Below, in pieces: positions 4,691 through 32,000 of a stretch of 32,000 nucleotides of DNA. Where the stretch lies: the NCBI GenBank assembly GCA_027460535.1, contig JAPZAR010000007.1, positions 30,001 to 62,000 of the forward strand. The letters are read 5' to 3'. Position 1 is the first letter of the stretch, and every line of letters starts with the position of its first letter. Made by a program: the position numbers and the translations under genes. This DNA is from Candidatus Methanoperedens sp. Lineage in GTDB: Archaea; Halobacteriota; Methanosarcinia; Methanosarcinales; Methanoperedenaceae. The notes under the pieces are model-generated. The model was not told where the DNA came from. It ran no database searches and saw nothing but the letters and a program-made list of their open reading frames with translations.

Positions 4691-4846
4691 ATGCAAGGAA
4701 TATACGAAGGCTATCCAGTAATGCTTCATGATAGAGCTTGGACTGTAATCCTTACTTTATCGCAAGATAATACAGGCACAACTCATTTTGACAGAGCCAT
4801 AGAACTCATTAAACATTCTGGACAGGCATCTGTCGTGAGGAATTAA
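4691..4846 (+). CDS. Small (51 aa) hypothetical ORF, absent from the ORF track
   Basis: Hand translation: MQGIYEGYPVMLHDRAWTVILTLSQDNTGTTHFDRAIELIKHSGQASVVRN, stop TAA 4844-4846. There is no obvious SD. It is the only other open stretch in the AT-rich island. Confidence 0.2.
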   Translation: MQGIYEGYPVMLHDRAWTVILTLSQDNTGTTHFDRAIELIKHSGQASVVRN

Positions 4847-5068: not shown

Positions 5069-7408
5069 ATGCCAATAGGTGTATATATCTGCCACTGCGG
5101 GTCGAACATAGCAGGAACCATTGATGTCGAGGACGTCAGGAAACATGCAGAAAAGCTGAAAGACGTAGTGGTAGCAAGGGACATACCTTTCGCGTGCGGC
5201 GACTCCGGGCAGGAGCAGGTCAAAAAAGACATCGAGGAGCTGAAGCTTGACAGGATAGTAGTGGCCGCATGTTCTCCACGCCTGCACGAAGTCACTTTCA
5301 GGCGCGTGCTTGAACAATCTGGCCTTAATCCCCATCTTCTTGAGATGGTCAATATCAGGGAGCAGGGTTCATGGGTACACTCAAATACCAACAGCATGGC
5401 GACGCAGAAAGCAAAAGATCTCGTAGCTATGGGCGTGGCAAAGGCCGCGCTTCTCTCCCCCCTCGAAAAAAAGACGCTTCCAGCGAACAAGGATGTGCTT
5501 GTTATCGGGGCAGGAGTTGCGGGTATAGAGGCAGCCCTTTCCCTGGCTGATATCGGAGTAAAAGTCCGACTGGTTGAAAAGGAACCGACCATCGGCGGCA
5601 AAATGGCGCTGATGAACGAGGTATTCCCTACCAACGACTGCTCGATGTGCGTTCTGGCTCCCAGGATGTCAGATGCACAGAACCATCCAAACATTACCCT
5701 GTATACCTATTCAGAGATAAAGAAAATCGAGGGCAGAGCGGGGAATTTCAAAGTAACAGGAATTAAAAAGCCGCGCTACATCGATGAGAAAAAATGCAAG
5801 GGCTGTATCGACATCTGCGCCCAGGTCTGCCCCATCGATGTACCAAACCAGTTCGATTTCGGGATAGGAAAGCGAAAGTCCATCTACATACCTTTTGCGC
5901 AGGCCGTGCCGCTGGTAGCATGCATAGACGAGCATTGCGTGGGCTGCGACCTGTGCAGGCTTGCATGCCCTGCCGAGGCAGTGGATTTCACACAGAAGCC
6001 GGAGGAGTTCGAGTTCAATGTAGGGGCGATAATCGTTGCAACAGGCTATCAGCCCTTTGATGCCGCGCGGAAGGAAGAGTATGGTTATGGCAGGTACAGG
6101 GATGTCATAACCAGCCTGGAGCTTGAGAGGATGCTGAACTCTGCAGGGCCAACACACGGCAGGGTGATCTCGCCATCCACGGGAAAGGATGTGAGAAGCG
6201 CCGCCTTCATCCTGTGCGTTGGTTCGCGTGACGAACAGGTGGGAAATCCCTATTGCTCCAAGGTGTGCTGCATGGCATCAATAAAGAACGCCGTCAAGAT
6301 CGCTGAAAAATATCCTGATGCGAAAGTCTCAGTGCATTACATTGATATCAGGGCAGGCGGCGAGATGTATGAGGAGTACTATAGACGCGCCCAGGAGATG
6401 GGCGTCTCGTTCGTACGCGGGCGCGTGGCTGAAGTAGAAGAATCCGACGGGAAAACGATAATCCATTATGAAGATACTCTTTCAGGAGAGAAATGCCATG
6501 AGGAATACGATCTCGTTGTGCTCGCCATCGGCATGGAGGCGAACAAAAACGCAGAGGCGCTGGGAAAGATGCTGAACCTCTCCACGCGACCTGACCGCTT
6601 CTTCCAGAGCTCCCATCCCAAGATGCGCCCGGTGCAAACACATACGAAGGGCGTATTTATTGCAGGTTGCGCCTCTGGTCCGAAGGAAATACAGGTATCC
6701 ATAGAGCAGGGGAGTGCGGCCGCAGCCAAAGCCGTTAGCCTTCTCCATACGGGGGAGATAGAGATCATGCCCATGAGTGCATATGTACTCCCTGAGCTTT
6801 GCGAGGGATGCGGGATATGTGAAAACGTATGCGAGCTGGGACGCATCAAGGTAATCGACGGGAAGGCAGTCGTGGACGAGGTGGCATGCAGGGGATGCGG
6901 CGCATGCAGTGCCGCATGCCCGAACGGTGCGATACAGCTTGGAAGTTATACGGACGAGCAGATAATGGCGCAGATACAGGAAGCCACCCGGGTGATCAGT
7001 GAGTATCCTCTGGTGATCGGGTTCCTGTGCCACTGGTGCAGTTACGCGGCTGCTGACCTTGCGGGTTCCCTGCGCCTTCAGTATCCCACGAACCTGCGCA
7101 GCATCAGGGTTCTTTGCGCGGGCAGGGTCAATCCCTCCTTTGTGCTTGAGGCGCTGCGGCGTGGGGCTGATGGTGTGCTTGTGGCAGGATGCAGGCTCGG
7201 GGAGTGTCACTACACCATAGGTAATACTTGCGCCCTGCAGAGGATGAACGTGCTTGGAAAACTGCTCGTTGACCTTGGATTTGATGAGCGGCGGCTTCGC
7301 GTTGAGTGGATCGCCGCAAGTGAAGGAGAGAAGTTCGCCGGGATAGTGAAGGACTATGTTCAGCAGCTAAAAGAACTCGGTCCGGTCGGCAGCGAGCTTA
7401 AGCGGTGA
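5069..7408 (+). CDS. hdrA: Heterodisulfide reductase subunit A fused to an MvhD-like domain (HdrA-MvhD)
   Basis: N-terminus MPIGVYICHCGSNIAGTIDV. FAD fold VLVIGAGVAGIEAALSLADIG. Four ferredoxin-type Cys motifs: CKGCIDICAQVCP, CVGCDLCRLACP, CEGCGICENVCE and CRGCGACSAACP. The C-terminal ~135 aa (nt 7001-7405, PLVIGFLCHWCSYAAADLAG...GCRLGECHY) are MvhD-like. GGAG lies 5 nt upstream of the ATG. Confidence 0.9.
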   Translation: MPIGVYICHCGSNIAGTIDVEDVRKHAEKLKDVVVARDIPFACGDSGQEQVKKDIEELKLDRIVVAACSPRLHEVTFRRVLEQSGLNPHLLEMVNIREQGSWVHSNTNSMATQKAKDLVAMGVAKAALLSPLEKKTLPANKDVLVIGAGVAGIEAALSLADIGVKVRLVEKEPTIGGKMALMNEVFPTNDCSMCVLAPRMSDAQNHPNITLYTYSEIKKIEGRAGNFKVTGIKKPRYIDEKKCKGCIDICAQVCPIDVPNQFDFGIGKRKSIYIPFAQAVPLVACIDEHCVGCDLCRLACPAEAVDFTQKPEEFEFNVGAIIVATGYQPFDAARKEEYGYGRYRDVITSLELERMLNSAGPTHGRVISPSTGKDVRSAAFILCVGSRDEQVGNPYCSKVCCMASIKNAVKIAEKYPDAKVSVHYIDIRAGGEMYEEYYRRAQEMGVSFVRGRVAEVEESDGKTIIHYEDTLSGEKCHEEYDLVVLAIGMEANKNAEALGKMLNLSTRPDRFFQSSHPKMRPVQTHTKGVFIAGCASGPKEIQVSIEQGSAAAAKAVSLLHTGEIEIMPMSAYVLPELCEGCGICENVCELGRIKVIDGKAVVDEVACRGCGACSAACPNGAIQLGSYTDEQIMAQIQEATRVISEYPLVIGFLCHWCSYAAADLAGSLRLQYPTNLRSIRVLCAGRVNPSFVLEALRRGADGVLVAGCRLGECHYTIGNTCALQRMNVLGKLLVDLGFDERRLRVEWIAASEGEKFAGIVKDYVQQLKELGPVGSELKR

Positions 7409-21414: not shown

Positions 21415-21491
21415 ATAATAATATTTTAATAGTTATCTTGTATCAACTTAAACTATATATAAGAGTAATAATTAATTATATATTAATATTT

Positions 21492-22439
21492 ATGGAGACC
21501 GTGGTATCGAGCAGTGCTGCTCTTCAACGCAAGATAAAAATTCAAAATGGTCTTTCTAAAAGTCGAAATATGGCATACGGCAAAAGGGATATCTCATTGA
21601 TAACAGGTGCGGCTTTTGAATTAGCCGATAAACTCAATGCTTCAGCCATTATTACCTTTTCTGAGGAGATCCCTAAAGTTCCCGCCCATATCCCCGTGCT
21701 TGTTTTTACCGGTCGAAAGTTGACAATGGTAAATGAGTTTACAAGGTGTATTGAGGAAAACGATAAAAATATTTATGAGAGGATGCAGGACAGGACAAAA
21801 AGCGCCGCTGAAGATGTGAGCGACGCGAGCGTGATCGCTTTTATCAATAATCTACTCGACACCAAAGGTTTAGTCGTTGGAATTACAAGGATGAAAGACA
21901 ACGATTCTATAATAATCTACGATCTCTCAACAAACAAGGCAATGAAAAAACTCATGGAATGTACAGAAAGTGCAGAGGCTCCGGTGTTGCGTGCTGTCTT
22001 GAATGTCTCTCTTCAGATAGCCTTCCAGGGAAGGGAAGGCAAGCCCTTCGGATCCGCTTTTATAATTGGTGATTCAGATGAGGTCTTGCGGCGTTCACAT
22101 CAACTTGTGCTCAATCCTTTTGAGGGACAGTCAAAAGATAACTGCGACATAGTCAACCCCAAAAGCTGGGAAACTGTTAAAAGTTTTGCCCAGTTGGATG
22201 GAGTTTTTGTGATCACGGGGGCTGGAATAATCCGGGCGGCAGGGAGATATCTTGATATCAATGCAAAGGACCTTCCGGTCGAAAAAGGTTTAGGGGGAAG
22301 ACATGCTTCCGCAGCGGCCATCACGCGGGATACTGAAACGATAGCGATAACGGTTTCTACCAGCGGAGGTATTATCAGGGTCTTCAAGGATGGAATGGAA
22401 ATGGTTAAGATTGAACCGGACATCATGCTGATACAGTGA
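21492..22439 (+). CDS. DisA_N/DAC-domain protein, DacZ-like (putative diadenylate cyclase)
   Basis: The C-terminal DAC-like blocks are GSAFIIGDSDEVL, QLDGVFVITGAGIIRAAGRYL and GLGGRHASAAAITRDTETIAITVSTSGGIIRVFKDG. The N-terminal part (ITGAAFELADKLNASAIITFSEE) resembles a pyruvate-kinase-C-like domain. The track ORF starts at TTG 21438, and the first ATG is 21492, just after the AT-rich TATA-like run CTATATATAAG. Confidence 0.6.
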   Translation: METVVSSSAALQRKIKIQNGLSKSRNMAYGKRDISLITGAAFELADKLNASAIITFSEEIPKVPAHIPVLVFTGRKLTMVNEFTRCIEENDKNIYERMQDRTKSAAEDVSDASVIAFINNLLDTKGLVVGITRMKDNDSIIIYDLSTNKAMKKLMECTESAEAPVLRAVLNVSLQIAFQGREGKPFGSAFIIGDSDEVLRRSHQLVLNPFEGQSKDNCDIVNPKSWETVKSFAQLDGVFVITGAGIIRAAGRYLDINAKDLPVEKGLGGRHASAAAITRDTETIAITVSTSGGIIRVFKDGMEMVKIEPDIMLIQ

Positions 22440-30312: not shown

Positions 30313-30335
30313 CACGTATGGCTGCGCCATACGTG
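30313..30335 (+). other. Perfect 9-bp hairpin
   Basis: CACGTATGG (30313-30321), loop CTGCG, CCATACGTG (30327-30335). Confidence 0.7.
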
Positions 30336-30384: not shown

Positions 30385-30498
30385 GCGGCTGTGGTCCAGC
30401 GGCTATGACAGGGGCTTCCCAACAGCCTTTTGCAGGCAAAAGCTTGATCAAAAGGAGGGAAATAGCCTCTAACCCGGGTTCGAATCCCGGCAGCCGCA
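30385..30498 (+). tRNA. tRNA-Gly(CCC) with a 42-nt intron at the canonical 37/38 position
   Basis: Hand-folded cloverleaf. The acceptor GCGGCTG/CAGCCGC pairs 7/7. The D arm is GTCC...TGAC (3 bp plus C.U). The anticodon stem is GGGGC/GCCTC with one G.U. The loop is TTCCCA|A once the intron (30422-30463) is removed. The T arm is CCGGG-TTCGAAT-CCCGG. The discriminator is A and no CCA is encoded. Confidence 0.8.
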
Positions 30499-30531
30499 CT
30501 TAATATTCGGGGATACATACACAACATACGT

Positions 30532-30554
30532 AATGTCACCTCAAAATGTCACCT
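30532..30554 (+). repeat. Tandem direct repeat AATGTCACCT x2 (13-nt period), 34 nt after the tRNA 3' end
   Basis: Perfect 10-mers at 30532-30541 and 30545-30554. Confidence 0.8.
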
Positions 30555-30602
30555 ATTCCGTAACGGGAATTTTTTAAGATAACCTTTGTGTTATAAAACC
30601 CA

Positions 30603-31029
30603 AATTTGACAGTTCTAATTATTACTGAATGATTTTACAATTTTTATTATCAACGATAAAACGTGGTTTTGAATTTTTCACCATTTTTTCAAGCATAAAT
30701 TTGACAGTTCTATTTCTGTTTGTTGAATGCGATTTCTTTGATTTTTCACTTGTTTTTAGATCAACAATTTGACAGTTCCTTTATCTTTGATAGAATTTGG
30801 TTTTGATGATTTTTGACTTTTTTTATTGACCTGTTATTTGACAGGTGAGACAAGTATATCTAAACAGAAAATTACCAAAAAATACAACATGGAATTTGAC
30901 AGTTGCTGTAGATTTTCGAAAAAAATAAACAAGAATGGTATATTTTTGTTATTTTCACTCAAATAATAAGGAAAATTTGTTGTTAAAAGAGAATATTCTC
31001 TTTTAAGAAGACTGCCATCTGTCAAACTT
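30603..31029. repeat. Array of AATTTGACAGTTC motifs (5 direct, 1 inverted) in very AT-rich DNA; iteron-like
   Basis: Direct copies sit at 30603-30616, 30698-30711, 30766-30779, 30835-30847 (TATTTGACAGGTG) and 30893-30906. An inverted copy, TCTGTCAAACTT, sits at 31018-31029. Copies 2-4 lie in longer ~45-nt degenerate units (GGTTTTGA-ATTTTTCAC-N-TTTTT-N-AATTTGACAGTTC) spaced 68-69 nt apart. Confidence 0.75.
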
Positions 31030-31208
31030 AGGATAAAAGCATCATATATGGTGGATACTCTCGGCAAGCTCCTGTCTTGGCTCATATACAATAATTGGTA
31101 GATGGATTTTTTTATGAGAGTAGTATAAAATCCAAAAAATTACTTGATTATCAGAAATTATTAGATATAAAAACATTTATGCATTGTTAAATTAACGGAA
31201 TAGTAAAC

Positions 31209-32000
31209 ATGCCAAGGAAATTATCTGACTTTCGTTTAGCATCGCAAGAAGAAATAGAAAGTGTGGGTTATGGTGGCGCAGGAATATTTACAGGGGCCCC
31301 TGGTGGATTCCACAGAACAATTATTTATAAATTAATGAACGAAACTTTTGGTCCGCCAAATACTTATGCAGGAGACAAATCTACTTGGGAATGGATTATT
31401 TATACTAACGCTGGTCTTTTGACAATATATGATTATAAGGGAGATTGGTCAATCGGATATGCTAGTACAAATCTAAAGCTATCTATTGAATTATTAAATG
31501 AAGCATCTGCATTACAGGATGCTCTGCTAATAGAGGCAGATAAAATTCATTTTTCAAAAATGCAAATTCAGAAACTAAAGGTTGGAGGAGCTATCTTAAA
31601 TCCTTATTCTTTGTATCGTAATACAACAGAGGATTTGATAAGACAGACTAGCGAGATAATTAAAGAGATAGAGAGTTTACAAAAAGAAAGAGATATTAAT
31701 AAAACTCTTGACTCTTTTGCTAAATCTCAATTTGTGTCATCCTTAAATAGGTCAGCATTTATGACTACATTTTTGAGTTTAGAAGGCTTTATAAACCTTG
31801 TATATACACTGTTCCTAAAAAATAGATATCGGAATGATATATACGACAAACGGCTTAGAAATGAAATGCTTCCGATAAAAATTTTAGAAATGGATGTATA
31901 TTGCCATTCATTCAAAAGCTCTCCACTAGAAAAAAATGGTGAATTATTTGGTGCGATTCAACATTTTATAAATACAAGAAATCTAATATTACATGCAAAT
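31209..32000 (+). CDS. Hypothetical protein with a C-terminal HEPN-like R-N-x3-H motif, 3' truncated by the window edge (not in the ORF track)
   Basis: I translated 264 codons by hand without a stop, from ATG 31209 to nt 32000, in AT-rich DNA. An in-frame TAA at 31188-31190 bounds it upstream. It begins MPRKLSDFRLASQEEIESVGYGGAGIFTGAPGGFHRTIIY. It ends ...SAFMTTFLSLEGFINLVYTLFLKNRY...GELFGAIQHFINTRNLILHAN. Confidence 0.7.
   Translation, partial: MPRKLSDFRLASQEEIESVGYGGAGIFTGAPGGFHRTIIYKLMNETFGPPNTYAGDKSTWEWIIYTNAGLLTIYDYKGDWSIGYASTNLKLSIELLNEASALQDALLIEADKIHFSKMQIQKLKVGGAILNPYSLYRNTTEDLIRQTSEIIKEIESLQKERDINKTLDSFAKSQFVSSLNRSAFMTTFLSLEGFINLVYTLFLKNRYRNDIYDKRLRNEMLPIKILEMDVYCHSFKSSPLEKNGELFGAIQHFINTRNLILHAN

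Follow-up and report, generated by a model that had tools for sequence, protein, structure and literature searches.

At the end of a 32,000-nucleotide stretch of Candidatus Methanoperedens sp. DNA (contig JAPZAR010000007.1, positions 30,001 to 62,000 of the forward strand; the window), an open frame starts at ATG 31209 on the forward strand and runs to the last base. This frame is the first two-thirds of a real archaeal gene for a protein of 388 residues, P0001, probably a new single-gene defence or toxin protein that cuts RNA. Sequence, structural models and analogy with known systems together make it fairly probable that P0001 is a stand-alone, two-domain ribonuclease (RNase) of the HEPN (higher eukaryote/prokaryote nucleotide-binding) type, acting as a defence or toxin effector, and that its gene was gained horizontally near a tRNA-Gly gene. 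P0001 represents a new, unannotated family of a well-known kind, that of the stand-alone HEPN-like effectors.

Translation from ATG 31209 gives 264 sense codons and no stop up to position 32000. With the local composition (32% GC), the stop probability is 0.083 per codon, corresponding to one stop per 12 codons, and the probability of 264 open codons is ~1e-10, in line with an earlier note on this DNA, which had described the frame and judged it unlikely by chance. In 2000 shuffles of the sequence, the longest open run in any frame is 147 codons. The nearest upstream in-frame stop is located at 31188, and the other five frames of 31209-32000 each contain 10-26 stops. The GC content at the three codon positions is 0.40/0.35/0.22, as expected of a coding frame. 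The translation of the window fragment terminates in ...FINTRNLILHAN, and its final residues, ...FGAIQHFINTRNLILHAN, are those of the earlier translation. The frame is absent from the list of open reading frames (ORFs) only because it runs off the window, as the note had presumed. A database protein, P0001, labelled 'hypothetical protein' and coming from a Candidatus Methanoperedens metagenome-assembled genome (MAG), is identical to the fragment over all 264 residues, and the complete gene is present on two ENA contigs, L001 and L002.

A word-index search retrieved 27 homologues, of which 24 are full length (388-451 aa, with 39-86% identity), and an exhaustive profile search of 1.84 billion cluster representatives retrieved 246 family representatives at E<=1e-3, of which 153 reach E<=1e-10. 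All family members bearing a name are called 'hypothetical protein', and the representatives come from archaeal and bacterial metagenomes. Conservation was counted over the non-gap residues in an alignment of 130 diverse representatives, which are 13-49% identical to P0001. The sole columns conserved at 90% or above are N131, E192, N196, C232, F235, R257, N258 and H262; E192 and N196 are each retained in 127 of 130 relatives, R257 in 122 of 127, N258 in 118 of 127, and H262 in 123 of 125. The family consensus reads [SA]-[LF]-E-[GA]-[FL]-x-N-L-x-Y ... R-N-[DN]-[FL]-[IV]-H-[ASG]-N. Judged from this alignment, R-N-x3-H, in which the earlier note had recognised a HEPN-type motif, is the defining feature of the family and not a chance match: the R/H pair, the best conserved of all, is retained at 96% or more across the 130 relatives. 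An unconserved R/H pair, which the note had named as evidence against its reading, is thus not what the homologues show. The helical segment noted upstream of the motif is likewise real; it is the SxEGFxNLxY helix, and it carries the near-invariant pair E192/N196.

The whole protein was modelled confidently by AlphaFold2, with a predicted local distance difference test score (pLDDT) of 88.9 and a predicted template modelling score (pTM) of 0.78. The model comprises an N-terminal alpha/beta domain, for which no Pfam or PDB match was found and no fold could be assigned, and a helical domain (Table 1). In the helical domain, helices 132-159 and 163-202 form a first hairpin, with E192 and N196 in the second of these helices; short inserted helices (210-231) lie between helix 163-202 and helix 245-261. 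Helix 245-261 contains R257, while H262 is the first residue past the helix end. The motif helix is followed by a beta-hairpin (272-283) and then by helix 303-322. A model of the domain on its own gives the same layout, with the motif helix at 120-136 in domain numbering.

Table 1. Features at and around the open frame, in window coordinates.
Feature	Position	Strand	Remarks
tRNA-Gly(CCC) with 42-nt intron at the canonical 37/38 site	30385..30499	+	ARAGORN, intron mode (-i); left edge of the low-GC islet
Low-GC islet	30500..32000	.	GC 28-32%; most of the window roughly 38-52%
Five same-strand copies of ATTTGACAGTT, one with 1 mismatch	30604..30904	+	Intergenic, between tRNA and gene
TATA-like A/T-rich element TTAGATATAAAAAC	31160..31175	+	35-48 bases upstream of ATG; read directly from the sequence
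Gene, 5' part	31209..32000	+	First 264 of the 388 codons of P0001; stop ~375 bases past the window end
N-terminal alpha/beta domain, residues 1 to ~125	31209..31583	+	Family-specific; conserved F47, N51, W60, W62, G78, W80, S81 (alignment; secondary structure from the model)
HEPN-like helical domain, start (residues ~126-340, up to 264 in the window)	31584..32000	+	As predicted in the AlphaFold2 models
E192-G-F-I-N196 codons	31782..31796	+	Candidate second active-site element; E and N conserved
R257-N-L-I-L-H262 codons	31977..31994	+	Rx4H at the end of helix 245-261 (translation, alignment, model); R257 codon 31977-31979, H262 codon 31992-31994

HEPN domains are four-helix up-down bundles that consist of two alpha-hairpins, helices 2 and 3 being linked by an insert. 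Helix 3 has Rx4-6H at its end, R is directly followed by a polar residue (N/D/H), and an acidic residue is conserved farther upstream, usually within E-x3-[KR] in helix 2 (PMC3710099). R257-N-L-I-L-H262 has the spacing Rx4-6H and the polar residue after R, and in the predicted structure it is positioned at the C-terminal end of core helix 3, at the start of the loop to helix 4. The upstream acidic residue has a counterpart in E192, in the second long helix. The helix order (132-159, 163-202, insert 210-231, 245-261, 303-322) fits a two-hairpin HEPN bundle, at a Foldseek template modelling (TM) score of only ~0.3.

Profile comparisons of the relatives point to the same assignment. Of the 130, 17 match PF18735 (HEPN_RiboL-PSP), which Anantharaman et al. 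2013 (PMC3710099) delineated as a clade of HEPN domains, below threshold and with a best E of 1.9e-5. The matches inspected are collinear with the profile, the E/N helix corresponding to profile positions 6-101 and the RNxxxH stretch to 144-165; the four relatives looked at one by one reach 16-17.6 bits, short of the gathering score of 28.4. The matches sit in a subfamily of ~340 aa, not in one of ~430 aa. Furthermore, one relative gives sub-threshold matches to NCBIfam HepT_toxin (1.8e-5) and Pfam HepT-like (3.7e-4), one matches HEPN_Swt1 below threshold, and one matches the PADLOC Csx1/Csm6 (CARF+HEPN) model (1.4e-4). In Foldseek searches with the domain model, Csm6 (6tug) ranks first at a non-significant E of 0.47, and the top 50 include, also without significance, the HepT toxins 7ae6, 7ae8 and 7ae9 (E ~2) and YutE (1ylm). 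Taken together, motif, topology and converging weak homology make it likely that the helical domain is of HEPN type, with no significant single match among them.

Several results pull the other way. P0001 has no Pfam HEPN match even at E<=10, no curated model matches at threshold, and P0001 matches neither an NCBIfam model nor any PADLOC-DB v2.0 family (0 matched). Profile searches of PDB sequences with alignments A1 and A2 found no HEPN protein. The best Foldseek match of the whole model in the PDB has a non-significant E of 0.11, and the matches are long-helix and profilin-like noise. Designed helical bundles match the domain model as well as HEPN proteins do (TM ~0.3), and the upstream pair is E-x3-N, unlike the typical HEPN E-x3-[KR]. 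The HEPN RNase-like protein proposed in the earlier note is supported by motif, helix order and many sub-threshold profile matches, and by no significant structural or curated-model match. Two other matches were set aside: a coiled-coil-like match to DUF5055 (E>=0.012), obtained when the fragment, P0001 and the 24 close homologues were scanned against Pfam, PADLOC and NCBIfam, is noise, and a Foldseek search of BFVD gave one uncharacterised siphovirus protein (E 0.06) and nothing usable. A word-index search with the 130-sequence profile, seeking proteins with HEPN Pfam labels, returned the same close family only.

The same results could be read as those of a helical protein outside the HEPN class, in which the conserved R-N-x3-H and E-x3-N have another role, for instance in binding a ligand or nucleic acid or in a different kind of catalysis. 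The lack of a significant match of P0001 itself to a HEPN model or structure, the equal Foldseek scores of de novo helical bundles and HEPN proteins, and the departure of the acidic motif from E-x3-[KR] would all suit such a protein. However, the weak matches converge on four HEPN families and on nothing else recurrent, and HEPN spacing, polar residue after R and helix-end position are all present; we therefore consider a non-HEPN protein improbable. P0001 belongs neither to PF18735 nor to any other curated family.

The window is chromosomal archaeal DNA, with genes for aconitase, PdxT/SNO amidotransferase, a DacZ-type diadenylate cyclase, an S8 protease and a CitMHS transporter. The tRNA-Gly gene was missed by ARAGORN in default mode, which reports no tRNA in the window, and Rfam detects a tRNA at 30385-30498 whose anticodon loop contains a long insertion. 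The tRNA-Gly intron shows that the contig is archaeal. The gene for P0001 starts 710 bases downstream of the tRNA, inside an islet of 28-33% GC that, on L001, extends ~2.3 kb past the window end (~3.8 kb in total). The other genes of the islet encode a convergent 209-aa membrane-like protein and a DUF5658 protein. Beyond the islet the GC content is ~44-50%, and housekeeping genes follow (ACT-domain protein, homoserine dehydrogenase, TRM5/TYW2). The islet shows two features of a tRNA-associated genomic island, tRNA adjacency and a shift in composition. A metagenomic contig of a relative (L018) retains the transporter (77% identity) and the tRNA (95%) and has no islet; there, a gene of ~52% GC starts 153 bp after the tRNA, which we take from its sequence, without a family search, to encode a fructose-1,6-bisphosphate (FBP) aldolase/phosphatase. 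Downstream synteny on L018 also differs, and so no clean empty site is defined. In some metagenomic relatives the same tRNA-Gly exons are found, with the intron region absent from the alignment.

The homologues mostly lie beside genes of defence or toxin type. In a bacterium of 65% GC (L003, the same locus as L004), the homologue lies in an islet of ~5 kb and 39-47% GC directly after tRNA-Leu(CAA). At other loci the neighbours encode a TIR-TM/ThsB-like protein (L006); an AAA_15/AAA_23 ATPase, vWA and MoxR proteins and a PDDEXK nuclease (L008/L009); HNH_2, MazG-like and SLFN-type helicase proteins (L010); ThsB_TIR and GmrSD (L012); a PIN toxin and a frameshifted DUF4238 protein (L014); HicA (L031); and Abi_C together with a weak rve integrase-like gene (L032). 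One locus (L035) has no recognisable neighbour, and at L015 a truncated remnant adjoins a gene for a caspase-domain protein. As a raw count, defence or toxin genes lie within a few kb at 7 of the 10 full-length loci examined, one of the ten being the window copy. All-against-all BLASTP of the neighbours at 8 loci found no partner gene conserved across independent loci, indicating that the family behaves as a unit of one gene. The family is rare: a pattern-limited search of 185,579 species genomes recovered only 3 loci.

Horizontal gain and a defence role have their own difficulties. There is no integrase among the genes of the window islet, no att-type repeat (>=11 nt of the tRNA region) downstream of it, and no recognisable known defence gene beside the window copy. 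No homologue was found in plasmid or phage records by tblastn with P0001, P0046 and P0095, and none in IMG/VR contigs. In addition, one family member, P0021, lacks the R-N-x3-H motif and has IVELFKNTN instead. The tRNA-flanked island of the earlier note holds up as to the tRNA-Gly gene and the low-GC islet. The note's proposal of a candidate defence gene agrees with the homologues, which mostly stand beside defence or toxin genes, although the window copy has no such neighbour that can be recognised. We infer the defence role solely from the contexts of the homologues.

An RNase of the HEPN-like kind might also be a selfish toxin or addiction module, or help to maintain a mobile element, and not defend against viruses; it would then be neutralised by an unrecognised small antitoxin or by its own N-terminal domain. 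The neighbouring toxin-antitoxin genes HicA (L031) and PIN/VapC (L014), the weak rve integrase-like gene adjoining the L032 copy, and the tRNA-adjacent low-GC islets are in keeping with this, and both the L015 remnant and the motif-less P0021 fit a gene that is costly to keep. On the other hand, the family has no conserved adjacent gene to serve as antitoxin, no MNT-type nucleotidyltransferase partner at any of the loci examined, and no copy in the plasmid, phage or viral contigs searched, and we regard such a selfish role as unlikely. A housekeeping gene of the Methanoperedens core genome might be expected from the chromosomal contig, with its aconitase, PdxT/SNO and CitMHS transporter genes and with homoserine dehydrogenase downstream. 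Yet the GC content is ~15 points under that of the flanks, the syntenic relative with the transporter-tRNA pair (L018) lacks the gene, the pattern-limited search gave just those 3 loci, and the homologues occur sporadically in unrelated archaea and bacteria without sharing synteny. Housekeeping homologues in conserved synteny, which the earlier note had named as evidence that would speak against a defence gene, were not found: the neighbours differ at every independent locus. We reject the housekeeping reading, which composition, rarity and lack of synteny render barely credible.

By analogy with characterised HEPN systems, we infer for the two-domain RNase a HEPN fold, RNase activity, dimerisation, a sensor role of the N-terminal domain and a defence phenotype. 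E192, N196, R257, N258 and H262 would form a metal-independent RNase site; a homodimer would bring two Rx4H motifs together, with E192 and N196 completing the active site, and the cut RNA would end in a 2',3'-cyclic phosphate. Until a trigger such as virus infection, the nuclease would be kept inactive by the N-terminal domain; RNA cleavage would then arrest the cell, either as abortive infection or as toxin action. The gene itself would be a single-gene cassette acquired horizontally in the low-GC islet by tRNA-Gly. More tentatively, and with less than even confidence, the family might constitute an uncatalogued single-gene abortive-infection system of archaea and bacteria, whose N-terminal domain would be a new sensor that directly recognises a component of a virus or mobile element and releases the RNase. 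In Methanoperedens, the target of such a system could be archaeal viruses or other extrachromosomal elements.

Among known families, PF18735 is the sole curated one matched repeatedly by the relatives, and it shares the R-N-x3-H spelling. The P0001 family differs from it by an N-terminal alpha/beta domain of its own and by a beta-hairpin inserted behind the motif, and no member examined reaches the gathering score. The HepT toxins of the type VII HEPN-MNT toxin-antitoxin systems (PDB 7ae6/7ae8) resemble the P0001 family in their small helical RNase domain with Rx4H. HepT proteins are ~130-150 aa long and are paired with an MNT antitoxin that AMPylates HepT; P0001, in contrast, has 388 aa and an extra domain, and no locus examined has an MNT neighbour. 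With AbiJ/Abi_C, AbiV, AbiU2, AbiD/F and Csm6/Csx1, the P0001 family shares a logic in which a HEPN RNase is joined to a sensor or regulator domain and encoded in defence islands; the likeness includes the Abi_C gene adjoining one homologue and, for Csm6/Csx1, the non-significant first rank of Csm6 in Foldseek and the single PADLOC match. However, the sequence of P0001 falls in none of these families, its N-terminal domain is unrelated to theirs, and, unlike Csm6/Csx1, it has no CARF domain and no CRISPR-Cas neighbourhood.

If the assignment is true, it brings into the catalogue of defence and toxin effectors a stand-alone family of HEPN RNases, missed by Pfam, NCBIfam and PADLOC, whose partner domain is new. 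To our knowledge, very few immune genes have been tested in the methane-oxidising archaea of the genus Methanoperedens; the existence of bacterial homologues makes the family testable in standard phage assays. The result is incremental and not surprising, since there are many HEPN families, and specialists expect to find more of them in defence islands.

Some family members show signs of rearrangement or decay. A protein from a second Candidatus Methanoperedens MAG (P0027) is annotated as a 'partial' protein of 213 aa; its C-terminal 160 residues are identical to P0001, and its first ~50 residues are unrelated to P0001 and rich in Pro and Arg, which points to a frameshift, rearrangement or assembly chimera at the P0001 locus in the sister genome. 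P0021 (L008/L009) has gained an insertion of ~50 aa in the helical domain and is encoded directly upstream of the AAA_15/AAA_23 ATPase, followed by vWA-MoxR and PDDEXK genes; it may be a HEPN domain that lost its activity and was taken over as one subunit of a multi-gene system. In a Eubacteriales MAG (L015, 10001-10492), only the N-terminal ~120 residues of a homologue are found, in a truncated 96-aa ORF beside a Peptidase_C14 (caspase-domain) protein, indicating gene decay in the family. The L003 islet, which encodes the homologue P0015, contains a 73-nt direct repeat, 85% identical, at 4746-4818 and 5167-5239, just past tRNA-Leu(CAA); no integrase was seen in this islet, and att-like or nested integration scars are possible readings of the repeats.

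Between the tRNA and the gene, the ATTTGACAGTT copies are spaced 58-95 bases apart. None of 100 shuffles reaches 5 matches, and the motif has no other occurrence in the window; an imperfect inverted copy lies at 31016-31026. The array could represent sites of operator, iteron or arm type, or the decayed remains of a small element. A search for it in viral contigs gave 5 matches, all unrelated tandem arrays, and is uninformative. L001 and L002, which come from two other samples, begin exactly within one ATTTGACAGTT copy (their positions 1-165 were compared with 30894-30972 of the window) and carry, after ~30972, a 108-nt insertion relative to the window that ends with the inverted motif AACTGTCAAAT. 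These start points and the insertion indicate that the upstream region is strain-variable and breaks assemblies, and the 108-nt difference may be a MITE-like (miniature inverted-repeat transposable element) insertion or deletion. Closer to the gene, the TATA-like element may be the archaeal promoter.

Directly upstream of the tRNA, the segment 30257-30340 is GC-rich, opens with GCGGCTG like the 5' end of the tRNA, and includes a perfect 10-bp hairpin, CACGTATGGC/GCCATACGTG, at 30313-30335. It matches no Rfam family and could be a tRNA-derived remnant or a small RNA. At 30795-30880 (+), Rfam gives a weak match to a C/D-box small nucleolar RNA (snoRNA), SNORD11B, that scores 23.9 bits (gathering score 50; E 0.24) and contains a UGAUGA box. 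C/D-box small RNAs are encoded by archaea; this match, which overlaps the ATTTGACAGTT array, is probably due to chance. Farther upstream, the DacZ-type diadenylate cyclase gene (21438-22439, +), which is unrelated to the HEPN-like gene, encodes a DacZ_A sensor domain and a DAC domain and is the gene for an archaeal c-di-AMP synthase.
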